Shown in pieces: positions 1,811-53,934 of a stretch of 64,000 nt of DNA. Numbering within the stretch: the first letter of the stretch is position 1; every line of letters starts with the position of its first letter. Where the stretch lies: the NCBI RefSeq assembly GCF_054482595.1, contig NZ_CM137008.1. One strand, written 5' to 3'. The notes beneath the pieces are model-generated. The model saw nothing but the letters and a program-made list of their open reading frames with translations, made no database searches and was not told where the DNA came from. Both the position numbers and the translations under genes were made by a program.

Positions 1811-2272
1811 ATGACTATTTGGGAAATAAGCGAGAAAGCCGATTACATCGCACAGCGGCATCGTCGCCTACAGGACCAGTGGCACATCTACTGCAATTCG
1901 CTGGTTCAGGGGATCACGTTATCGAAAGCGCGCCTGCATCACGCCATGAGCTGCGCGCCGGACAAAGAACTCTGTTTCGTCCTTTTTGAACATTTTCGTA
2001 TTTACGTCACCCTGGCGGATGGCTTTAACAGCCACACCATCGAGTATTACGTCGAAACAAAAGAGGGCGAAGACAAACAGCGGATTGCGCAGGCGCAACT
2101 GAGCATTGACGGCATGATTGATGGCAAGGTCAACATCCGCGATCGCGAACAGGTTCTGGAACACTATCTCGAAAAAATCGCTGGCGTTTACGACAGCTTA
2201 TACACCGCTATTGAAAACAATGTGCCGGTGAATTTAAGCCAACTGGTAAAGGGACAAAGCCCGGCAGCATGA
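1811..2272 (+). CDS. hycA: HycA, negative regulator of the formate regulon (153 aa)
   Basis: ORF-track protein MTIWEISEKADYIAQRHRRLQDQWHIY... recognised as HycA; first gene of the hyc operon. Confidence 0.93.
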   Translation: MTIWEISEKADYIAQRHRRLQDQWHIYCNSLVQGITLSKARLHHAMSCAPDKELCFVLFEHFRIYVTLADGFNSHTIEYYVETKEGEDKQRIAQAQLSIDGMIDGKVNIRDREQVLEHYLEKIAGVYDSLYTAIENNVPVNLSQLVKGQSPAA

Positions 2273-3008: not shown

Positions 3009-4831
3009 GCGCAATTTCCCTGATCAATAGCGGCGTGGCGTGGTTTGTCGCCGCCGCTGTTCTGGCATTTCTCTTTTCTTTTCAAAAGGCGCTAAGCGGC
3101 TGGATAGCCGGAATTGGCGGCGCGGTTGGTAGTCTGTATACGGCAGCCGCGGGCTTCACTGTACTGACTGGCGCGGTTGGCGTGAGCGGTGCGCTGTCGC
3201 TGGTAAGCTACGATGTGCAAATCTCTCCGCTTAACGCGATTTGGCTGATTACGCTCGGTCTGTGCGGTCTGTTTGTCAGCCTCTACAACATTGACTGGCA
3301 TCGCCACGCGCAGGTGAAGTGCAACGGCTTGCAGATCAATATGTTGATGGCTGCCGCCGTCTGCGCCGTCATCGCCAGCAACCTCGGCATGTTCGTGGTA
3401 ATGGCTGAAGTCATGGCCTTGTGTGCGGTGTTCCTTACCAGCAACAGCAAAGAGGGCAAACTGTGGTTTGCGCTGGGGCGTCTTGGCACTCTGCTGCTGG
3501 TGATTGCTTGCTGGCTGCTGTGGCAGCGTTATGGCACGCTGGATCTGCGCCTGCTGGATATGCGTATGCAACAGCTGCCGCTCGGTTCCGATATCTGGCT
3601 GCTCGGTGTGATTGGCTTTGGCCTGCTGGCCGGGATTATTCCGCTGCACGGCTGGGTGCCGCAGGCACATGCTAACGCCTCTGCGCCAGCTGCCGCGTTG
3701 TTTTCTACGGTAGTCATGAAAATTGGCCTGCTGGGCATTTTAACCCTGTCACTGCTGGGCGGTAATGCACCGCTGTGGTGGGGGATCGCGCTGCTGGTGC
3801 TCGGTATGATCACCGCGTTTGTCGGCGGTCTGTATGCGTTGATGGAACATAATATCCAGCGTCTACTGGCTTACCACACCCTGGAAAATATCGGCATTAT
3901 CCTGCTGGGGCTGGGCGCTGGCGTAACGGGTATCGCGCTCGAACAACCGGCGCTGATTGCTCTTGGCCTGGTCGGTGGTCTGTACCATCTGCTTAACCAT
4001 AGCCTGTTCAAAAGCGTACTGTTCCTCGGGGCGGGGAGCGTCTGGTTCCGTACCGGTCATCGCGATATCGAAAAACTCGGTGGTATTGGCAAGAAAATGC
4101 CGGTTATCTCCATCGCTATGTTAGTCGGGCTGATGGCAATGGCTGCACTGCCGCCGCTGAACGGTTTTGCCGGGGAATGGGTTATCTATCAATCCTTCTT
4201 CAAACTGAGCAATAGTGGCGCGTTTGTTGCCCGTCTGCTGGGGCCGCTGCTCGCTGTGGGTCTGGCAATTACCGGTGCGCTGGCGGTGATGTGTATGGCG
4301 AAAGTCTATGGCGTCACGTTCCTCGGCGCGCCGCGTACCAAAGAAGCCGAAAACGCCACCTGTGCACCGCTCCTGATGAGCGTAAGCGTAGTGGCACTGG
4401 CGATTTGCTGCGTAATTGGCGGTGTTGCTGCGCCGTGGCTACTGCCGATGCTCTCTGCTGCTGTACCTCTGCCGCTGGAGCCTGCTAACACCACCGTTTC
4501 TCAACCGATGATCACGTTGCTGCTGATTGCCTGCCCGCTGCTGCCATTCATCATTATGGCGATTTGCAAAGGCGATCGTTTGCCATCGCGTTCCCGCGGC
4601 GCGGCCTGGGTGTGCGGCTACGACCACGAAAAATCAATGGTGATTACCGCTCACGGTTTTGCCATGCCGGTGAAACAGGCGTTTGCGCCGGTGCTGAAAC
4701 TGCGCAAATGGCTGAATCCGGTGTCGCTGGTGCCGGGCTGGCAATGCGAAGGCAGTGCGTTGCTGTTCCGCCGGATGGCGCTGGTTGAACTGGCGGTACT
4801 GGTGGTGATTATTGTTTCACGAGGAGCCTGA
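3005..4831 (+). CDS. hycC: HycC, FHL complex membrane subunit (NuoL/ND5-like antiporter-type, 608 aa)
   Basis: Long hydrophobic polytopic protein; start overlaps the hycB stop by 4 nt; position in hyc operon. Confidence 0.93.
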   Translation: MSAISLINSGVAWFVAAAVLAFLFSFQKALSGWIAGIGGAVGSLYTAAAGFTVLTGAVGVSGALSLVSYDVQISPLNAIWLITLGLCGLFVSLYNIDWHRHAQVKCNGLQINMLMAAAVCAVIASNLGMFVVMAEVMALCAVFLTSNSKEGKLWFALGRLGTLLLVIACWLLWQRYGTLDLRLLDMRMQQLPLGSDIWLLGVIGFGLLAGIIPLHGWVPQAHANASAPAAALFSTVVMKIGLLGILTLSLLGGNAPLWWGIALLVLGMITAFVGGLYALMEHNIQRLLAYHTLENIGIILLGLGAGVTGIALEQPALIALGLVGGLYHLLNHSLFKSVLFLGAGSVWFRTGHRDIEKLGGIGKKMPVISIAMLVGLMAMAALPPLNGFAGEWVIYQSFFKLSNSGAFVARLLGPLLAVGLAITGALAVMCMAKVYGVTFLGAPRTKEAENATCAPLLMSVSVVALAICCVIGGVAAPWLLPMLSAAVPLPLEPANTTVSQPMITLLLIACPLLPFIIMAICKGDRLPSRSRGAAWVCGYDHEKSMVITAHGFAMPVKQAFAPVLKLRKWLNPVSLVPGWQCEGSALLFRRMALVELAVLVVIIVSRGA

Positions 4832-4833
4832 GA

Positions 4834-5757
4834 ATGAGTGTTTTATATCCGTTAATTCAGGCGCTGGTGTTATTTGCCGTTGCGCCGCTGCTCTCCGGTA
4901 TTACCCGCGTGGCGCGCGCCCGCTTGCATAACCGTCGCGGGCCGGGCGTGTTGCAGGAGTATCGCGACATTATCAAACTGCTGGGTCGCCAGAGCGTTGG
5001 CCCGGATGCCTCCGGCTGGGTGTTCCGCCTGACGCCGTATGTGATGGTGGGCGTCATGCTGACTATCGCTACTGCGCTGCCGGTGGTGACCGTTGGTTCT
5101 CCGCTGCCGCAACTGGGTGATTTGATCACCTTACTGTATCTCTTTGCCATCGCGCGTTTCTTCTTTGCCATTTCCGGTCTGGATACCGGTAGCCCGTTTA
5201 CTGCTATCGGCGCGAGCCGTGAAGCGATGCTTGGCGTGCTGGTCGAACCGATGCTGCTGCTTGGTCTGTGGGTTGCCGCACAGGTTGCCGGTTCCACCAA
5301 CATCAGCAACATCACCGACACCGTTTATCACTGGCCGCTGAGCCAGAGCATCCCGCTGGTGCTGGCGCTTTGTGCCTGTGCGTTCGCCACTTTTATCGAA
5401 ATGGGCAAACTGCCGTTCGACCTGGCGGAAGCCGAGCAGGAGTTGCAGGAAGGTCCGCTCTCTGAGTATAGCGGCAGCGGCTTTGGCGTCATGAAATGGG
5501 GTATCAGCCTGAAACAGCTGGTGGTGCTGCAGATGTTCGTCGGCGTATTTATCCCGTGGGGACAGATGGAAACCTTCACCGCCGGTGGGCTGCTGCTGGC
5601 GCTGGTGATTGCCATCGTCAAACTGGTGGTCGGCGTCCTGGTTATCGCGCTGTTCGAAAACAGCATGGCCCGTCTGCGTCTTGATATTACTCCGCGCATT
5701 ACCTGGGCTGGGTTTGGCTTTGCATTTTTAGCGTTCGTCTCCTTGCTGGCGGCGTGA
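4834..5757 (+). CDS. hycD: HycD, FHL complex membrane subunit (NuoH-like, 307 aa)
   Basis: Hydrophobic 307 aa protein immediately after hycC; recognised operon position. Confidence 0.93.
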   Translation: MSVLYPLIQALVLFAVAPLLSGITRVARARLHNRRGPGVLQEYRDIIKLLGRQSVGPDASGWVFRLTPYVMVGVMLTIATALPVVTVGSPLPQLGDLITLLYLFAIARFFFAISGLDTGSPFTAIGASREAMLGVLVEPMLLLGLWVAAQVAGSTNISNITDTVYHWPLSQSIPLVLALCACAFATFIEMGKLPFDLAEAEQELQEGPLSEYSGSGFGVMKWGISLKQLVVLQMFVGVFIPWGQMETFTAGGLLLALVIAIVKLVVGVLVIALFENSMARLRLDITPRITWAGFGFAFLAFVSLLAA

Positions 5758-5774: not shown

Positions 5775-7484
5775 ATGTCTGAAGAAAAATTAGGTCAACA
5801 TTATCTCGCCGCGCTGAATGAGGCATTTCCGGGCGTCGTGCTGGACCACGCCTGGCAGACCAAAGATCAGCTGACTGTCACCGTAAAGGTGAACTACCTG
5901 CCGGAAGTGGTGGAGTTTCTTTACTACAAACAGGGTGGCTGGCTGTCGGTGCTGTTTGGTAACGACGAACGCAAACTGAATGGTCATTACGCCGTTTACT
6001 ACGTGCTGTCGATGGAGAAGGGTACTAAGTGCTGGGTAACGGTACGCGTCGAAGTTGACGCCAACAAACCGGAATATCCGTCCGTGACACCGCGCGTTCC
6101 GGCGGCGGTATGGGGCGAGCGTGAAGTGCGCGATATGTACGGTTTGATTCCGGTAGGGCTGCCGGATGAACGCCGTCTGGTGCTGCCGGATGACTGGCCG
6201 GATGAACTTTATCCGCTGCGTAAAGACAGCATGGATTATCGTCAACGTCCGGCACCGACCACCGATGCTGAAACCTACGAGTTCATCAACGAACTGGGCG
6301 ACAAGAAAAACAATGTCGTGCCGATTGGTCCGCTGCACGTCACTTCTGACGAACCGGGTCACTTCCGTCTGTTCGTCGATGGCGAAAACATTATCGACGC
6401 CGACTACCGTCTGTTCTATGTCCATCGCGGTATGGAAAAACTGGCAGAAACCCGCATGGGTTACAACGAAGTGACCTTCCTCTCTGACCGTGTGTGCGGG
6501 ATCTGCGGCTTTGCCCACAGCACCGCCTACACCACGTCGGTGGAAAACGCGATGGGTATCCAGGTACCAGAACGCGCGCAGATGATCCGCGCCATTCTGC
6601 TGGAGGTAGAACGCCTGCACTCGCATCTGCTCAACCTCGGCCTCGCCTGCCACTTTACCGGCTTCGACTCCGGCTTTATGCAGTTCTTCCGCGTGCGTGA
6701 AACCTCCATGAAAATGGCAGAGATCCTTACCGGTGCGCGTAAAACCTACGGCCTGAACCTGATCGGCGGGATTCGTCGCGATCTGCTGAAAGATGACATG
6801 ATCCAGACCCGTCAACTGGCGCAACAGATGCGTCGTGAAGTGCAGGAGCTGGTGGATGTGCTGCTGAGTACGCCGAACATGGAACAGCGCACTGTCGGCA
6901 TTGGTCGTCTGGACCCGGAAATCGCTCGCGACTTCAGTAACGTTGGCCCGATGGTCCGCGCCAGCGGTCACGCCCGCGATACCCGCGCCGATCACCCATT
7001 TGTCGGCTATGGCCTGCTGCCAATGGAAGTCCACAGCGAGCAGGGCTGCGACGTTATTTCCCGTCTGAAAGTGCGTATCAACGAAGTCTATACCGCGCTG
7101 AACATGATCGACTACGGTCTGGATAACCTGCCGGGTGGCCCACTGATGGTGGAAGGCTTTACTTACATTCCACACCGTTTCGCGCTGGGCTTTGCCGAAG
7201 CGCCGCGCGGCGATGATATCCACTGGAGCATGACCGGCGACAACCAGAAGCTGTACCGCTGGCGCTGCCGTGCCGCGACCTACGCGAACTGGCCGACCCT
7301 GCGCTACATGCTGCGTGGCAATACCGTTTCCGATGCGCCGCTGATTATCGGTAGCCTGGACCCGTGCTACTCCTGTACCGACCGCATGACCGTAGTCGAT
7401 GTACGTAAGAAGAAGAGCAAAGTGGTGCCGTACAAAGAACTCGAGCGCTACAGCATTGAGCGTAAAAACTCGCCGCTGAAATAA
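5775..7484 (+). CDS. hycE: HycE, hydrogenase 3 [NiFe] large subunit (569 aa)
   Basis: Recognised N-terminus MSEEKLGQHYLAALNEAFPG at ATG 5775 (ORF track started 21 nt upstream); RVCGICGFAH N-terminal and DPCYSCTDR C-terminal Ni-Fe ligand motifs with a C-terminal extension. Confidence 0.93.
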   Translation: MSEEKLGQHYLAALNEAFPGVVLDHAWQTKDQLTVTVKVNYLPEVVEFLYYKQGGWLSVLFGNDERKLNGHYAVYYVLSMEKGTKCWVTVRVEVDANKPEYPSVTPRVPAAVWGEREVRDMYGLIPVGLPDERRLVLPDDWPDELYPLRKDSMDYRQRPAPTTDAETYEFINELGDKKNNVVPIGPLHVTSDEPGHFRLFVDGENIIDADYRLFYVHRGMEKLAETRMGYNEVTFLSDRVCGICGFAHSTAYTTSVENAMGIQVPERAQMIRAILLEVERLHSHLLNLGLACHFTGFDSGFMQFFRVRETSMKMAEILTGARKTYGLNLIGGIRRDLLKDDMIQTRQLAQQMRREVQELVDVLLSTPNMEQRTVGIGRLDPEIARDFSNVGPMVRASGHARDTRADHPFVGYGLLPMEVHSEQGCDVISRLKVRINEVYTALNMIDYGLDNLPGGPLMVEGFTYIPHRFALGFAEAPRGDDIHWSMTGDNQKLYRWRCRAATYANWPTLRYMLRGNTVSDAPLIIGSLDPCYSCTDRMTVVDVRKKKSKVVPYKELERYSIERKNSPLK

Positions 7485-8803: not shown

Positions 8804-9210
8804 GTGAAAAGGTGGTGTTCAGTCAACTGAGCCGTAAATTTATTGATGAGAACGATGCCACGCCCGCCGAGGCGCAGCAGGTGGTCTATTACAGCCTGGC
8901 GATTGGTCACCACCTTGGGGTTATCGATTGCCTGGAAGCGGCGCTCACCTGCCCATGGGATGACTATCTGGCATGGATTGCCACTCTGGAGGCGGGCAGC
9001 GAAGCCCGCCGCAAAATGGAAGGCGTACCGAAGTACGGTGAGATCGTCATCGACATTAACCATGTGCCGATGCTGGCCAATGCATTCGATAAAGCCCGGG
9101 CAGCGCAAACTTCGCAGCAGCAGGAATGGAGTACAATGCTGTTAAGTATGCTGCATGATATTCATCAGGAAAACGCCATCTATTTGATGGTGAGGAGACT
9201 GCGTGACTGA
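8800..9210 (+). CDS. hycH: HycH, FHL complex maturation/assembly protein (136 aa)
   Basis: ORF-track protein and operon position; overlaps hycG stop by 4 nt. Confidence 0.9.
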
Positions 9211-12895: not shown

Positions 12896-12981
12896 CTGAA
12901 TATTTTTCCCGCCGATTGCGCAAGGACAATCGGCAAACGGTGCAGTACACTGCGTTGATTGCGTGTAAAGGGATGAAAATG

Positions 12982-13992
12982 ATGACGACGATGCTGGAAG
13001 TGGCGAAGCGCGCCGGGGTTTCAAAAGCGACCGTTTCCCGCGTGCTTTCAGGTAATGGCTACGTCAGCCAGGAGACTAAAGATCGCGTGTTTCAGGCGGT
13101 AGAAGAGAGCGGTTACCGCCCAAACTTGCTGGCGCGCAATCTGTCGGCGAAGAGTACTCAGACGCTGGGGCTGGTAGTGACCAACACGCTTTACCACGGC
13201 ATTTATTTTAGTGAATTACTCTTTCATGCCGCGCGAATGGCGGAAGAGAAAGGGCGGCAGTTGCTATTGGCAGATGGTAAACACAGCGCCGAAGAAGAGC
13301 GCCAGGCGATTCAGTATCTGCTGGATTTGCGCTGCGACGCCATTATGATTTACCCGCGTTTTTTAAGCGTGGATGAGATCGATGACATCATTGACGCGCA
13401 CAGTCAGCCGATAATGGTGCTTAATCGCCGCCTGCGCAAAAACAGCAGCCATAGCGTCTGGTGCGATCATAAACAGACCAGTTTTAACGCCGTGGCAGAG
13501 TTGATAAACGCCGGGCATCAGGAGATTGCTTTCCTTACCGGCTCGATGGATTCCCCCACCAGCATTGAACGTCTTGCCGGGTATAAAGACGCGCTGTCGC
13601 AGCATGGTATTGCGCTCAATGAAAAACTTATCGCTAACGGTAAATGGACACCTGCCAGCGGGGCCGAAGGGGTAGAAATGTTGCTCGAACGTGGGGCTAA
13701 ATTTAGCGCGTTAGTTGCCAGTAACGACGATATGGCGATAGGTGCGATGAAAGCGTTACACGAGCGCGGCGTAGCGGTGCCAGAGCAGGTGTCAGTTATC
13801 GGATTCGATGATATCGCAATTGCCCCCTATATCGTTCCGGCGCTCTCCAGCGTAAAAATTCCGGTGACTGAGATGATTCAGGAAATTATTGGACGGCTGA
13901 TTTTTATGCTCGATGGCGGGGATTTCTCACCGCCGAAAACCTTCAGCGGAAAACTGATCCGCCGCGACTCACTCATTGCTCTTTCGCGATAA
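12982..13992 (+). CDS. ascG: AscG, LacI/GalR-family repressor of the asc operon (336 aa)
   Basis: HTH LEVAKRAGVSKATVSRVL followed by a periplasmic-binding-protein-like fold; start set at MTTMLEV (ATG 12982), though the adjacent ATG at 12979 or 12973 is possible. Confidence 0.88.
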   Translation: MTTMLEVAKRAGVSKATVSRVLSGNGYVSQETKDRVFQAVEESGYRPNLLARNLSAKSTQTLGLVVTNTLYHGIYFSELLFHAARMAEEKGRQLLLADGKHSAEEERQAIQYLLDLRCDAIMIYPRFLSVDEIDDIIDAHSQPIMVLNRRLRKNSSHSVWCDHKQTSFNAVAELINAGHQEIAFLTGSMDSPTSIERLAGYKDALSQHGIALNEKLIANGKWTPASGAEGVEMLLERGAKFSALVASNDDMAIGAMKALHERGVAVPEQVSVIGFDDIAIAPYIVPALSSVKIPVTEMIQEIIGRLIFMLDGGDFSPPKTFSGKLIRRDSLIALSR

Positions 13993-14005
13993 ACATTGTC
14001 ATCAC

Positions 14006-14033
14006 ATGTCATCGTCACTAGTGTCGATGACAT
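14006..14033. promoter_or_regulatory. Inverted repeat ATGTCATCG-N10-CGATGACAT upstream of hydN, possible FhlA-type site
   Basis: Inverted repeat seen directly; resembles the TGTCG/CGACA motifs at the hyc-hyp sites; hydN-hypF is reported to be formate regulon. Confidence 0.4.
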
Positions 14034-14140
14034 CTTTTTTCCTGCATTACAGAAATTAATTTCCTTAAATAACAGTGAATTAAAAACTGGCATGATTTGT
14101 GAATGTATCGGCGCATTAACTGTCATTGCTGGAGAATTTG

Positions 14141-14668
14141 ATGAACCGTTTCATCATTGCTGACGCGAGTAAATGTATTGGTTGCCGTACCTGTGAAGTG
14201 GCGTGCGTGGTTTCTCATCAGGAAAATCAGGACTGTGCATCGCTGACCCCGGAAACATTTTTACCGCGTATCCATGTCATTAAAGGTGTGAACATTTCCA
14301 CGGCGACAGTTTGCCGTCAGTGTGAAGATGCACCGTGCGCTAACGTCTGCCCGAATGGTGCTATCAGCCGTGATAAAGGGTTTGTTCATGTGATGCAGGA
14401 ACGTTGCATTGGTTGCAAAACCTGCGTTGTGGCTTGCCCGTATGGCGCGATGGAAGTGGTGGTACGTCCGGTGATTCGCAACAGCGGCGCAGGGCTGAAT
14501 GTACGGGCTGACAAAGCCGAAGCCAATAAATGCGACCTGTGCAACCATCGTGAAGACGGCCCGGCGTGTATGGCGGCTTGCCCGACCCATGCGCTAATTT
14601 GTGTCGATCGCAATAAACTTGAACAACTGAGCGCAGAAAAACGCCGCCGTACGGCGCTGATGTTCTAA
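14141..14668 (+). CDS. hydN: HydN, formate dehydrogenase-H associated ferredoxin-type electron transport protein (175 aa)
   Basis: [23 protein letters not shown] with four Cys clusters; start moved to ATG 14141. Confidence 0.92.
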
Positions 14669-14820
14669 AAATCTTACAGAACTGTTCTGGCATCAAAGGA
14701 ATTCCCGGAAATATTCGTAGAATACGGAGCGGGCGGTATCGCCGACCTGTGACTGCCGGATGCGACGCTGTCGTGTCCGGCTGGGCGGGTTACGCAATTC
14801 ATGATGGCGGGAATAACTCA

Positions 14821-17073
14821 ATGTCAAAAAACACATCTTGCGGTGTTCAACTGCGTATTCGTGGCAAAGTGCAGGGCGTCGGTTTTCGTCCGTTTGTCTG
14901 GCAACTGGCACAGCAATTAAATCTTCACGGCGATGTCTGTAATGACGGCGATGGAGTAGAAGTCCGGCTGCTGGAAGACCCGGAAACGTTTCTTGTTCAA
15001 TTGCATCAGCACTGCCCGCCGCTGGCGCGTATTGATAGCGTCGAGCGTGAGCCGTACATCTGGTCACAACTGCCCACTGAGTTCACCATCCGCCAGAGCG
15101 CGGGAGGTGCCATGAATACGCAAATTGTCCCGGATGCCGCTACTTGCTCTGCTTGCCTTGCCGAAATGAATACCCCAGGCGAACGGCGTTATCGTTATCC
15201 ATTTATCAACTGTACCCACTGCGGCCCGCGCTTCACCATTATTCGCGCCATGCCTTACGATCGCCCGTTTACCGTGATGGCGGCGTTTCCGCTGTGTCCA
15301 GCCTGTGATAAAGAGTACCGCGACCCGCTCGATCGTCGCTTCCACGCCCAGCCGGTGGCCTGCCCGGAGTGTGGCCCGCATCTTGAATGGGTAAGTCATG
15401 GTGAACATGCGGAACAAGAGGCGGCATTACAGGCAGCTATCGCACAGCTAAAAGCGGGCAACATTGTCGCCATCAAAGGGATTGGCGGATTTCATCTTGC
15501 CTGCGATGCACGTAACAGTAACGCGGTGGCGACACTTCGGGCGCGCAAACATCGCCCGGCGAAACCGCTGGCGGTCATGTTGCCAGTGGCTGACGGTTTA
15601 CCAGACGCTGCGCGCCAGTTGCTTACCACGCCCGCCGCGCCGATTGTGCTGGTGGATAAAAAATACGTTCCTGAGCTTTGTGATGATATCGCCCCTGGCC
15701 TTAACGAAGTCGGGGTAATGTTGCCTGCGAACCCGCTCCAGCATTTGCTGTTACAGGAACTGCAATGCCCGCTGGTGATGACCTCCGGCAACCTGAGCGG
15801 TAAACCACCAGCTATCAGCAACGAACAGGCGCTGGCGGATTTGCAGGGCATTGCCGACGGATTCTTGATACATAACCGCGACATCGTGCAGCGGATGGAT
15901 GATTCGGTGGTGCGCGAAAGCGGCGAAATGCTGCGCCGTTCACGCGGGTATGTGCCGGATGCGCTGGTTTTGCCTCCGGGCTTTAAAAATGTTCCGCCTG
16001 TGCTGTGTCTTGGCGCGGATCTGAAAAACACCTTCTGCCTGGTGCGCGGTGAACAAGCGGTGTTGAGTCAGCATCTGGGCGATTTAAGTGACGATGGCAT
16101 CCAGATGCAGTGGCGCGAAGCGTTACGCCTGATGCAAAACATCTACGATTTCACTCCGCAATACGTTGTGCATGACGTGCATCCGGGCTATGTCTCCAGC
16201 CAGTGGGCGAGCGAAATGAATATGCCGACGCAAACGGTGCTGCATCATCATGCCCACGCAGCGGCGTGTCTGGCAGAGCATCAGTGGCCGCTGGATGGCG
16301 GTGATGTCATTGCTTTGACGCTCGATGGTATCGGTATGGGGGAGAACGGCGCTTTGTGGGGCGGCGAGTGTCTGCGGGTGAACTATCGCGAATGTGAGCA
16401 CCTGGGCGGCTTGCCTGCAGTGGCGCTTCCGGGTGGCGATTTGGCGGCGACGCAGCCGTGGCGAAACCTGCTGGTGCAGTGCCTGCGCTTTGTGCCGGAG
16501 TGGCAGAATTATTCTGAAACAGCAAGTGTGCAACAGCAAAACTGGAGCGTGCTGGCGCGGGCCATTGAGCGTGGAATTAACGCGCCGCTGGCGTCATCGT
16601 GTGGGCGGTTGTTCGATGCCGTGGCGGCGGCACTGGGCTGTGCGCCAGCCACGTTAAGTTATGAAGGTGAAGCGGCTTGTGCTCTGGAGGCACTCGCAGC
16701 TTCGTGCCACGGAGTGACGCATCCGGTGACAATGCCGCTGGTGGACAATCAACTGGATCTCGCCACTTTCTGGCAGCAGTGGCTGAACTGGCAGGCACCG
16801 GTTAATCAACGCGCGTGGGCGTTTCATGATGCGCTGGCGCAGGGTTTTGCCGCGTTGATGCGTGAGCAGGCCACGATGCGTGGTATCACTACGCTGGTAT
16901 TTAGCGGCGGGGTTATTCATAACCGTTTGCTGCGTGCACGTCTGGCGCATTATCTCGCTGATTTCACATTGCTCTTTCCACAGAGTTTACCGGCGGGTGA
17001 TGGCGGTTTGTCTCTGGGGCAGGGGGTTATTGCTGCGGCGCGTTGGTTAGCGGGTGAAGTCCAGAACGGATAA
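14821..17073 (+). CDS. hypF: HypF, carbamoyltransferase for [NiFe] hydrogenase maturation (750 aa)
   Basis: Acylphosphatase-like N-terminus ([10 protein letters not shown]), two CxxC...CxxC zinc fingers, YrdC and Kae1-like domains; start at [15 protein letters not shown] (ATG 14821). Confidence 0.93.
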
Positions 17074-19833: not shown

Positions 19834-19888
19834 GTTTTTTATCTGATTGTTTTTACTCTATAAATAAAATTATGCTCATTAATGAGTA

Positions 19889-19944
19889 GTCAAAATGACT
19901 ATCAATCAAATGGTCAATATGACAATATCTATAGTCAAATTGAC
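19889..19944. promoter_or_regulatory. Three NorR enhancer-binding sites (GTCA-N3-TGAC)
   Basis: gtcaaaatgac (19889..19899), gtcaatatgac (19913..19923), gtcaaattgac (19934..19944) in the norR-norV intergenic region, matching the known GT-N7-AC NorR site. Confidence 0.85.
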
Positions 19945-19956
19945 AGTGAGGCAAAG

Positions 19957-26670: not shown

Positions 26671-27756
26671 ATGTTCAAGCGTCGTTATGTAACATTGCTT
26701 CCCCTTTTTGTGTTGCTTGCCGCCTGTAGCAGCAAGCCAAAACCTACTGAGACTGAAACGACCACCGGAACGCCGTCTGGCGGCTTCCTGCTTGAGCCGC
26801 AGCACAATGTGATGCAGATGGGCGGCGATTTCGCTAATAACCCGAATGCCCAGCAGTTCATCGACAAAATGGTGAACAAACACGGTTTCGATCGTCAGCA
26901 GTTGCAGGAAATTCTCTCCCAGGCGAAACGTCTGGATTCGGTACTGCGGCTGATGGATAACCAGGCACCAACGACATCGGTGAAACCGCCATCAGGTCCG
27001 AACGGCGCATGGCTGCGTTATCGCAAAAAATTTATTACGCCGGACAATGTACAGAACGGTGTGGTTTTCTGGAATCAGTATGAAGATGCGTTGAATCGCG
27101 CGTGGCAGGTGTATGGCGTACCGCCGGAAATTATCGTCGGGATTATCGGCGTTGAAACCCGCTGGGGGCGCGTGATGGGGAAAACTCGCATCCTCGATGC
27201 GCTGGCAACGCTGTCATTTAACTACCCACGCCGCGCGGAGTATTTCTCTGGCGAGCTGGAAACCTTCCTGTTGATGGCGCGCGACGAGCAGGACGATCCG
27301 CTCAATCTGAAAGGTTCCTTTGCCGGGGCGATGGGCTACGGACAGTTTATGCCGTCGTCTTACAAACAATATGCAGTGGATTTCAGCGGCGATGGGCATA
27401 TCAACCTGTGGGAGCCGGTTGATGCGATCGGTAGCGTGGCGAACTATTTCAAAGCGCACGGCTGGGTGAAAGGCGATCAGGTCGCGGTAATGGCAAACGG
27501 TCAGGCTCCAGGCTTGCCAAATGGCTTCAAAACCAAGTACAGCATTTCGCAGCTTGCCGCGGCAGGTTTAACGCCACAGCAGCCGCTGGGCAACCATCAA
27601 CAAGCCAGCCTGCTGCGTCTGGATGTCGGTACCGGTTACCAGTACTGGTACGGTATGCCGAACTTCTACACCATTACCCGTTATAACCACAGCACCCATT
27701 ACGCAATGGCGGTCTGGCAGTTAGGACAAGCCGTGGCGCTGGCGCGCGTGCAGTAA
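26671..27756 (+). CDS. mltB: MltB, membrane-bound lytic murein transglycosylase B (361 aa)
   Basis: Recognised start MFKRRYVTLLPLFVLLAACSSKP with lipobox LAAC (ATG 26671; ORF track began 105 nt upstream); divergent from srlA. Confidence 0.9.
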   Translation: MFKRRYVTLLPLFVLLAACSSKPKPTETETTTGTPSGGFLLEPQHNVMQMGGDFANNPNAQQFIDKMVNKHGFDRQQLQEILSQAKRLDSVLRLMDNQAPTTSVKPPSGPNGAWLRYRKKFITPDNVQNGVVFWNQYEDALNRAWQVYGVPPEIIVGIIGVETRWGRVMGKTRILDALATLSFNYPRRAEYFSGELETFLLMARDEQDDPLNLKGSFAGAMGYGQFMPSSYKQYAVDFSGDGHINLWEPVDAIGSVANYFKAHGWVKGDQVAVMANGQAPGLPNGFKTKYSISQLAAAGLTPQQPLGNHQQASLLRLDVGTGYQYWYGMPNFYTITRYNHSTHYAMAVWQLGQAVALARVQ

Positions 27757-48938: not shown

Positions 48939-51083
48939 TTAAAGTGCACAGGAGACGCAGCCTTCAATTTCAGTGCCTTCCAGCGCCATCTGACGCAGGC
49001 GGATGTAATAGAGCGTTTTGATACCCTTGCGCCAGGCGTAAATCTGCGCTTTGTTGATATCGCGAGTGGTGGCGGTATCGGGGAAAAACAGCGTCAGCGA
49101 CAGCCCCTGATCGACATGGCGAGTCGCTTCCGCGTAGGTGTCGATGATCTTTTCTGCGCCGATTTCGTAAGCGTCCTGATATAGCGCCAGATTTTCGTTA
49201 GTCATAAACGGGGCAGGGTAGTAAACGCGTCCTGTTTTGCCCTCTTTGCGTATCTCTACTTTCGCCACAATCGGATGAATACTCGACGTAGCATGGTTGA
49301 TATAAGAGATAGAACCGGTTGGCGGCACCGCCTGGAGATTCTGGTTGTAAATGCCGTATCGCATCACGTCATCGCGCAGTTGCGCCCACATCTCACGGGT
49401 AGGTAACGTAATACCGCTGCGGGCAAACAGTTCGCCAACTTTCGCCGTTTTCGGCTGCCAGTTACCTTGCAGATATTGGCTGAAATATTCACCACTGGCA
49501 TAGCGTGACTGTTTGAACCCGGCGAAGGTTTGACCGCGTTCGCGCGCCAGCAACATCGAGGTACGCAGTGCGTGCCAGGTGATGGTATAGAAATAGAGAT
49601 TGGTGAAATCCAGTGCTTCCGGCGAACCATAAGCGATGCCTTCCCTCGCCAGATAACCATGTAAATTCATCTGCCCCAGTCCGATGGCGTGCGAGGCGGC
49701 ATTTCCGGCTTCGATGGAGGGCACGCTGCGGATATGACTCATATCTGACACCGCCGTTAAACCGCGTACGGCAGTCTCTACCGTGCGGGCAAAGTCGGGG
49801 GAATCCATGGTGTGGGCAATATTCAACGAACCTAAATTGCAGGAGATATCATGGCCTGTGCGGGCATAGTCGAGATTCTCGTTATACTCTGAGGCGCTGT
49901 TAACCTGCAAAATTTCTGAGCAGAGATTACTCATATTTATGCGCCCGGCGATAGGGTTAGCACGGTTTACCGTGTCTTCATACATGATGTACGGATAGCC
50001 AGACTCAAACTGGATTTCTGCCAGTCGCTGGAAGAAATCACGGGCGTTGAGGTATTTTTTGCGAATGCGTTCATCGGCAACCAGTTCGTCATAGTGTTGG
50101 CTGATGGCCACATCGGCAAACGGCTTGCCATAAACTCGCTCTACGTCATAAGGCGAAAACAGCGCCATCTGCGCATTCTCTTTTGCCAGATGGAAAGTGA
50201 TATCCGGGATCACCACGCCCAGCGACAGTGTTTTAATGCGGATTTTTTCGTCGGCATTTTCCCGTTTCGTGTCGAGAAAACGCAGAATATCGGGATGATG
50301 AGCATGTAAATAGACTGCACCAGCCCCCTGACGAGCGCCGAGTTGGTTGGCATAGGAAAATGCGTCTTCCAGCATTTTCATCACCGGAATTACGCCAGAA
50401 GATTGATTTTCAATACGTTTAATTGGCGCGCCCGCTTCTCGCAGATTCGACAGCAAAAATGCCACGCCGCCGCCGCGTTTCGACAGTTGTAGTGCGGAAT
50501 TTACCGCCCGGCCAATCGACTCCATATTGTCTTCAATACGCAGCAGAAAACAGGAAACCAGTTCGCCGCGCTGCTGCTTACCGCAGTTGAGGAATGTCGG
50601 CGTGGCTGGCTGAAAGCGTCCTGACAGCATCTCATCAGTGAGCTGCGTCGCCAGTGTTTCATCGCCTTGTGCCAGCGTCAGCGCCACCATCGTGACTCGA
50701 TCGGCAAAATCTTCCAGATAACGTTTACCGTCGAATGTCTTCAACGTATAGCTGGTGTAAAACTTCCATGCCCCGAGGAATGTCTGGAAACGAAAACCGC
50801 TGGTGTGTGCGTGGGCAAACAGCGTAATGACAAAGTCGCGAGGGTAGCGATTAAGAACGCTTTCATCATAGTAACCTTCGTTGACCAGCCAGTTCAGGCG
50901 CTGCTGCTGGCTACTGAAGGTCACACTGTTCGGACGCACATGCGTCGCAATAAAGGCGTCAACGGCCTGGCGGTCTTTATCGAACTGAATGCGACCTGCG
51001 CTATCGTAGAGGTTAAGCATCGCATTCAGCGCGTGATAATCCATCGTTTCCTGCGTCAGGCGTTCTGCGGTTGTCGTTGCCAA
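48939..51083 (-). CDS. nrdE: NrdE, class Ib ribonucleotide reductase alpha subunit (714 aa)
   Basis: [27 protein letters not shown]...; RNR large-subunit catalytic motifs including NLCSEI. Confidence 0.95.
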
Positions 51084-53267: not shown

Positions 53268-53934
53268 GCTAATGCTCCTTAATAAAAGCGTAATGGGATG
53301 TTAATGGAGATGAAAGCAGTGGATCTCATTGCCATCTGCATTTTCGCATAGCGTATATCGCTGGCTATGACTAATCAATTAGTGAAAAATTTTTATTTAG
53401 TCAGTTTTTGTAGATAAAATATTCCGTAACGGCTCGTTTTTTGTACATTGTGGATTTTTACATGCCGATATGATTTATTTTCAATTAAATCAATTAGATA
53501 TGACCTTGCCTTTAATTTCACTAATGAAAGTTTGGGGGTGAGGTAACGCTATAAGCGTAGAGAATTCGGTGTATGTCGTGACCGGGTCATTTACAGCATT
53601 TTTTATGCCAGAAAATGTACATTAACAGCAGAAAGCACCAGTGATGGATGTTTTCTTTTATTCTGTTATATTGCATTTTTATTCACTTTGGTTTTGTCAG
53701 GCTTGCGGAATTAGCGAGCAGAGAGCGCCGTTCTGTTCACCAATAATCTAAATTACTCATCAAAATGGCTAATATATAATCTTGAAATTATTCTGAGAGT
53801 TTCAGAAAATAACAGCTGAAATAATCTCGCGCAGGACTGTAAATAGATTAAATTTTGTGGAAATATAATAAGTGATCGCTTACACTACGCGACGAAATAC
53901 TTTTTTGTTTTGGCGTTAAAAGGTTTTCTTTATT

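Follow-up and report, generated by a model that had tools for sequence, protein, structure and literature searches.

The 148-bp spacer between ascG and hydN in Escherichia coli carries an inverted repeat, and the question raised by this locus is what role the repeat plays. The DNA analyzed here (referred to as the window, 64 kb in length) corresponds to the E. coli hyp-hyc-asc-hydN-hypF-nor region, in which norW lies on the minus strand. Regulation of hydN-hypF by formate, FhlA and sigma-54 is already known, and no new system is described in this work; indeed, a recent review (PMC11841067, citing Maier 1996) presents the operon as a member of the formate regulon, with expression enhanced by formate-FhlA. 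What our analysis establishes is the position of the palindrome formed by the repeat, its conservation, and the sharing of its half-sites with the UAS (enhancer) of hyc. We propose that the element TGTCATCGTCA-CTAG-TGTCGATGACA, located at 14007-14032, is most probably the UAS of the hydN-hypF sigma-54 promoter, with FhlA as the predicted activator.

The genes that frame the element, for which the RefSeq annotation under the match reads ascG / hydN / hypF, are the following:

12916-13992, plus strand: ascG open reading frame, with its stop codon at 13990-13992
14141-14668, plus strand: coding sequence of hydN, with which the controlled operon begins
14821-17073, plus strand: coding sequence of hypF, which comes second in the operon; its start is the one annotated by RefSeq in the homologous record, and the open frame reaches back to 14749

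A palindrome downstream of ascG

In a preliminary description of this DNA, the repeat was given as ATGTCATCG at 14006-14014 and CGATGACAT at 14025-14033, separated by 10 nt, and these arms and positions proved to be exact. The 10-nt spacer, tcactagtgt, is itself nearly self-complementary, and the element is therefore a palindrome without a spacer and with 14-nt arms. It covers 28 bp (14006-14033; arms 14006-14019 and 14020-14033), begins 14 nt 3' of the ascG stop codon, and matches at 13 of 14 arm positions, the exception being one T:T mismatch. Its parts, with positions counted from the palindrome centre, and the sequences next to it are:

13999-14004, no strand assigned: TCATCA, the E. coli version of a third block, TCGWCA (positions -21 to -16, 1.0-1.8 bits over 79 loci)
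14007-14017, plus strand: left arm or half-site TGTCATCGTCA, positions -13 to -3, invariant or near-invariant in 79 loci; its minus strand is an exact TGWCGATGWCA
14013-14026, no strand assigned: CGTCACTAGTGTCG, the central 14-mer, which fits CGWCA-N4-TGWCG, a form with exact matches upstream of fdhF and of hyf
14018-14021, no strand assigned: variable 4-nt centre, here CTAG, fixed in length and free in sequence
14022-14032, plus strand: right arm or half-site TGTCGATGACA, positions +3 to +13, invariant or near-invariant in 79 loci
14035-14040, plus strand: T-run TTTTTT after the palindrome, terminator-like in combination with the hairpin

Taken alone, a 9+9 inverted repeat is unremarkable in the window, where perfect repeats of this type with spacers of up to 20 nt have 15 distinct centres, versus 4.7 ± 2.2 in shuffled sequences. 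The 13/14 palindrome, by comparison, ranks first in the 64 kb, and its score was reached in none of 30 shuffles. The runner-up, centred at about 63756, matches at 12 of 14 arm positions.

The repeat had also been assigned to a TGTCG/CGACA motif family, and this assignment holds for one arm: TGTCG is present at 14022-14026, whereas CGTCA stands in the left arm in place of CGACA. A literal search for TGTCG-N(0-30)-CGACA showed no enrichment in the window (4 occurrences versus 2.4 expected), and the hydN repeat is not among them. An Rfam search of 13800-14300 identified no family, its sole match being to a miRNA, sub-threshold and meaningless.

The sigma-54 promoter of hydN and its IHF-like site

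The -24/-12 element quoted in the preliminary description, tggcatgatttgtgaa, was located at 14088-14103; it had been considered non-canonical, and the promoter assignment uncertain. Compared to the sigma-54 consensus TGGCAC-N5-TTGCW, the hydN promoter has the GG and the correct spacing, with GA instead of GC as the -12 doublet, and many hydN loci of other genera carry a canonical TGC at this place. Despite the GA, the assignment is certain, because the motif CTGGCATGATTTGTGAA agrees at every position with OS26, a sigma-54 ChIP-seq site assigned to hydN (PMC4591121), because its Salmonella homologue TGGCACGATTCGTGTATA is ChIP-chip positive for sigma-54 (PMC3844500), and because genomic SELEX with sigma-54 holoenzyme yielded a match in the ascG/hydN spacer (PMC8743547). 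In Salmonella, hydN-hypF displays a 13-fold dependence on sigma-54, and FhlA is given as the enhancer-binding protein (PMC3844500). Both the occupancy of this promoter by sigma-54 and the dependence of the operon on FhlA, formate and sigma-54 are thus taken from the literature. The elements between the palindrome and hydN are:

14070-14082, plus strand: IHF-like site TAACAGTGAATTA, located between the palindrome and the -24 element and differing from WATCAANNNNTTR at 2 positions
14087-14103, plus strand: sigma-54 promoter CTGGCATGATTTGTGAA, with the -24 GG at 14089-14090 and GA, not GC, at -12 (14101-14102)
14114, plus strand: predicted transcription start, placed by the 27 nt that separate the predicted start of OS26 from the gene (PMC4591121), counted here from the hydN ATG

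Relative to this predicted start, the palindrome centre (14019.5) lies at about -94.5, and its distance to the -24 GG in E. coli is 69 nt. A consensus scan for sigma-70 promoters and terminators, run over 13500-14700, called nothing at the site.

A strict IHF consensus is found at a fixed position in 18 of the 80 hydN loci described below, and a loose form in 64 of them. The IHF-like site and the -24 element together form a module that closely resembles the one at hyc, since TTAAATAACAGTGAATTAAAAACTGGCA (hydN, 14064-14092) and TTTAATAACAATGAATTAAAAGTTGGCA (hyc, 1735-1763) are identical at 24 of 29 positions. IHF is said to act at hyc, as reportedly described by Hopper et al. in 1994. A similar sequence, AACAATCAGATAAAAAACTGGCAC, is seen at the norV sigma-54 promoter (19835-19860, minus strand).

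Conservation and spacing of the palindrome

In order to follow the element across species, we collected hydN loci from 80 Enterobacteriaceae species genomes, representing about 20 genera. The pattern nGWCATCGWCA-N4-TGWCGATGWCn is present upstream of hydN in 79 of them. When these 79 loci are anchored on the palindrome centre, positions -13 to -3 and +3 to +13 each carry about 2 bits, and the 4-nt centre, together with the 20 nt to its right, about 0.1 bit. The only changes tolerated in the arms are A/T swaps, at two W positions per arm, and the inner W gives a T:T mismatch in 24/79 loci, this window included. The centre, for its part, is occupied by about 20 different tetranucleotides across genera, and its length is always 4 nt. 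This invariance of the arms looks like the result of sequence-specific recognition by a protein, and not of selection for a stem. The TCGWCA block, 16-21 nt to the left of the centre, shows moderate conservation and is possibly an accessory half-site.

Within E. coli, the hydN upstream region is single-copy among 5,426 genomes, and the palindrome of K-12 is that of the window. Among the matches listed, the two E. coli strains that diverge most (94-95% identity across the intergenic region) carry, as the only change in the palindrome, an A instead of a T at the inner W, which renders it perfect.

In the 79 loci, the spacing between palindrome centre and promoter GG falls into two classes, with 58-61 nt in 30 and 68-71 nt in 49, intermediate values of 62-67 nt being found in none. 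The two classes differ by about one helical turn, and in E. coli fdhF a matching core is located 79.5 nt before its GG. This bimodal spacing is suggestive of a face-of-helix constraint, although the loci are related, so that shared ancestry could partly explain it.

The gene directly upstream of hydN is ascG, in the same direction, in 65 of the 80 loci, and hycI in 12; the palindrome is kept with either. Furthermore, ascBFG is absent between hycI and hydN in about 730 of the 5,426 complete E. coli genomes, in which the palindrome is 100% identical. As the palindrome is kept next to three kinds of upstream neighbour (ascG, hycI and a divergent gene), it travels with hydN and not with ascG. We note that the approximately 730 genomes have, in place of the asc genes, an island with higB-higA between two hypothetical genes, the last of which is divergent from hydN, and that homology with the window resumes exactly at the ascG stop (13987-13992; loci L001 and L002, 2950-3010).

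Downstream, the unit formed by the palindrome and the sigma-54 promoter precedes hydN-fdhF'-hypF in 26/80 genomes, where a full-length fdhF paralogue is inserted between hydN and hypF. The intervening paralogue shares 65-67% identity with formate dehydrogenase H of E. coli, and selenocysteine 140 is replaced by Cys in all five of the proteins checked. In about a third of the sampled genomes, the palindrome-plus-promoter unit precedes an fdhF paralogue that is apparently of the Cys type. The loci concerned are:

about 3583-5730 in most: fdhF paralogue of loci L019, L022, L033, L045-L050, L052, L053, L055, L057, L058, L061-L065, L067-L071, L076 and L082

Units shared with FhlA targets

The published FhlA matrix is 14 bp in length (TGWC-RAWRAT-GWCA, built from 13 sites; PMC7658346). 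When the window was scanned with it, the hyp UAS (2333-2346, 17.4 bits) came first and the hyc UAS (1672-1685, 16.1 bits) second, and the best match of the hydN upstream region, CGTCACTAGTGTCG, reached 6.9 bits, which corresponds to rank 209 of about 128,000 positions. The palindrome also matches the cited 16-bp FhlA consensus, CATTTCGTACGAAATG, only loosely. As judged from its letters, the hydN palindrome is to be classed as non-canonical by the published matrix.

Its units are nevertheless found at FhlA targets. The form of the central 14-mer, CGWCA-N4-TGWCG, is present as an exact match upstream of fdhF (CGTCAAAACTGACG, L003 506-519) and of hyf (CGACACGGGTGTCG, L085 336-349), and with one mismatch in the hyp UAS. 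Its one other exact copy in the 64 kb, CGTCACTTCTGACG at 6338-6351, lies inside the hyc coding region and is probably there by chance. In addition, the 9-mer TGTCGATGA is common, without mismatch, to the hydN palindrome, the hyc UAS (1672) and the hyp UAS (2323), and occurs 6 times in the window versus 0.5 expected.

We then turned to hypA-hycA-hycB loci from 7 other genera, which were identified through HycA homologues and scanned over 17.2 kb with at most one mismatch. All eight matches to the half-site TGWCGATGWCA fell between hypA and hycA, in the intergenic region that harbours the hyc UAS and in which chance would give about 0.35. Three of them, those from K. quasipneumoniae, Raoultella and Pseudocitrobacter, are exact 11-mers in the hyc UAS. 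This sharing indicates that the hydN half-site is a recognition unit also employed, in a different arrangement, at the known FhlA-dependent hyc enhancer.

The poor fit to the FhlA matrix could be taken to mean that the palindrome serves as an enhancer or operator for another regulator, be it HyfR (a paralogue of FhlA), NorR (encoded nearby), AscG or a further protein. For HyfR, this reading draws on its close relationship to FhlA and on the CGWCA-N4-TGWCG core in the hyf upstream region, and for NorR on the left arm, in which GTCATCGTCAC formally fits the minimal GT-N7-AC. However, it is specifically in the hyc UAS that the half-sites are met again, and it is FhlA that the literature names as the activator of hydN; we consider it unlikely that another protein takes the place of FhlA, while HyfR may bind as well. 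Two of the candidates were rejected on more specific grounds. The NorR sites of the window have the form GTCA-WWT-TGAC, and the 'AC' of the match in the left arm is not conserved, position -2 being variable. As for an AscG operator, the palindrome persists in the asc-less E. coli genomes and in the 12 loci with hycI upstream, Salmonella included, which have no nearby AscG match.

Palindrome and T-run as a possible terminator

The palindrome and the T-run could also be primarily a Rho-independent terminator of ascG, which would insulate hydN from read-through, with the position before the hydN promoter being incidental. In the window, the element does have the appearance of such terminators, namely a hairpin followed by a T-run just past a stop codon. 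The RNA is predicted to form a hairpin of 9+2 pairs (dG -13.1 kcal/mol) with CUUUUUU after it, the 66-nt fold has a z of -2.2, and ascG is, as described above, the co-directional upstream gene in most of the genomes sampled. A comparison of the loci gives a different picture. Of the 79 orthologous loci, only 18 have a T-run of 5 or more T, and most of those outside Escherichia and Salmonella lack the U-tract. The arms are invariant across genera save for the W positions, whereas the stems of terminators usually drift by compensatory substitutions. Unlike a terminator, the palindrome persists in places where no co-directional gene lies upstream, with equal conservation behind hycI and in the approximately 730 E. 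coli genomes with a divergent neighbour. The half-sites are also present in the hyc UAS, a region of divergent promoters in which terminators would not be expected, and the consensus scan for terminators made no call.

Since T-runs are scarce, the stem is invariant and not covarying, and the element is kept even where no co-directional gene precedes it, termination is at most a secondary role, limited to Escherichia and Salmonella, and we regard it as very improbable that it is the primary one. That the palindrome and T-run act secondarily as the ascG terminator in Escherichia is conceivable, but it is not what we would expect. A literature search for data on an ascG terminator returned nothing useful.

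Finally, a functionless chance repeat, which the abundance of perfect 9+9 repeats with short spacers (15 centres versus 4.7 expected) might bring to mind, can be dismissed, as this palindrome is the best of the 64 kb, was equalled in 0/30 shuffles, and is kept in 79/80 species genomes while its flanks are randomised.

A putative FhlA enhancer for hydN-hypF

We interpret the palindrome as a putative FhlA enhancer on the basis of the promoter that it precedes, its geometry, its conservation, its independence of the upstream gene, the units that it shares with hyc, fdhF and hyf, the hyc-like promoter module and the units that precede the fdhF paralogues. The preliminary description had suggested that hydN-hypF is co-regulated with hyc and hyp by formate and FhlA, and this is upheld by two publications (PMC11841067 and PMC3844500), by the enhancer distance, by the cross-genus conservation and by the half-sites in hyc. 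Direct binding of FhlA at the hydN palindrome was not found in the accessible literature, and a literature search for FhlA ChIP-exo data found none.

In the mechanism that we envisage, formate-activated FhlA would bind the two inverted 11-bp half-sites, and possibly also the weaker TCGWCA block upstream of them. The IHF-like site at 14070-14082 would serve to bend the DNA, and FhlA could then contact the closed complex of RNA polymerase and sigma-54 on CTGGCATGATTTGTGAA (14087-14103). ATP hydrolysis by FhlA would convert this into the open complex, and hydN-hypF transcription would start from near 14114.

The proposed hydN enhancer has much in common with the UAS of hyc, hyp (in the hycA-hycB spacer) and fdhF of E. 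coli. Like them, it lies upstream of a sigma-54 promoter, is built of GWC/TCGWCA-type units, and has FhlA as the activator named in the literature. The hyc, fdhF and hydN sites are all found at about -95 to -105, and at hyc, as at hydN, an IHF-like site precedes the -24 element. The differences concern mainly the architecture, since the hydN site is one compact, near-perfect 26-bp palindrome, whereas the UAS of hyc, hyp and fdhF are longer arrays in which units such as TGTCGAAAATGACA are spaced by A-tracts. Its conservation across genera is much stricter than that of the hyc UAS, and the -12 element of its promoter is GA, unlike the GC of its relatives in the E. coli formate regulon. The comparison with hyc is most direct in Klebsiella, Raoultella and Pseudocitrobacter, whose hyc UAS contain the exact 11-mer of the hydN half-site (TGTCGATGACA / TGTCATCGACA). 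In Klebsiella and Raoultella, the half-sites TGTCGATGACg and TGTCATCGACA point apart, with starts 23 bp from each other (L094 861-894; L096 859-892), in contrast to those of hydN, which face each other across 4 nt.

Another sigma-54 enhancer of the window, that of NorR at norV (19880-19950), is likewise composed of GTCA/TGAC-type inverted repeats and is accompanied by an IHF-like A/T-rich site by the -24 element. It differs from the hydN site in having three 11-bp GTCA-N3-TGAC sites, in the sequence of its half-sites and in its effector, NO.

As the place of hydN-hypF in the formate regulon is textbook knowledge, the result has little import beyond annotation, to which it contributes by pinning the probable hydN enhancer to a defined 26-bp palindrome whose footprint is clear across genera. 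If the site was previously unmapped, it would add to a known class of enhancers a member with an unusually compact and conserved architecture. The published matrix appears to under-describe FhlA sites, and the shared 11-mer could improve the prediction of the regulon in Enterobacteriaceae.

We also raise, very tentatively, the idea that the hydN enhancer constitutes a distinct, compact FhlA architecture, with 11-bp half-sites (TGWCATCGWCA) placed head to head around a fixed 4-nt spacer, which in Escherichia doubles as the ascG terminator; taken as a whole, we find this more doubtful than not. If it is true, the recognition unit of FhlA would be the 11-mer, or its GWC triplets, in arrangements that differ from promoter to promoter, and in Escherichia a single palindrome would be both enhancer and ascG terminator. 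Such a compact architecture would be much more strictly conserved than the enhancers of hyc, hyp and fdhF, and would be missed by the 14-bp matrix.

Other motif copies in the window

Copies of TGTCGATGA are also found outside the known enhancers, at 9039-9055 (minus strand), 26858-26866 (minus strand) and 49139-49147 (plus strand). The first of these positions, inside hycH and just before hycI, holds two overlapping near-matches to the hydN half-site, TGACGATCTCA and TGTCGATGACG. The pattern TGGCAY-N6-TGCW has 5 exact matches in the window, versus 1.1 expected, among which are two further sites, TGGCACATCTACTGCA inside hycA (1880-1895, plus strand) and TGGCATAAAAAATGCT at 53595-53610 (minus strand).
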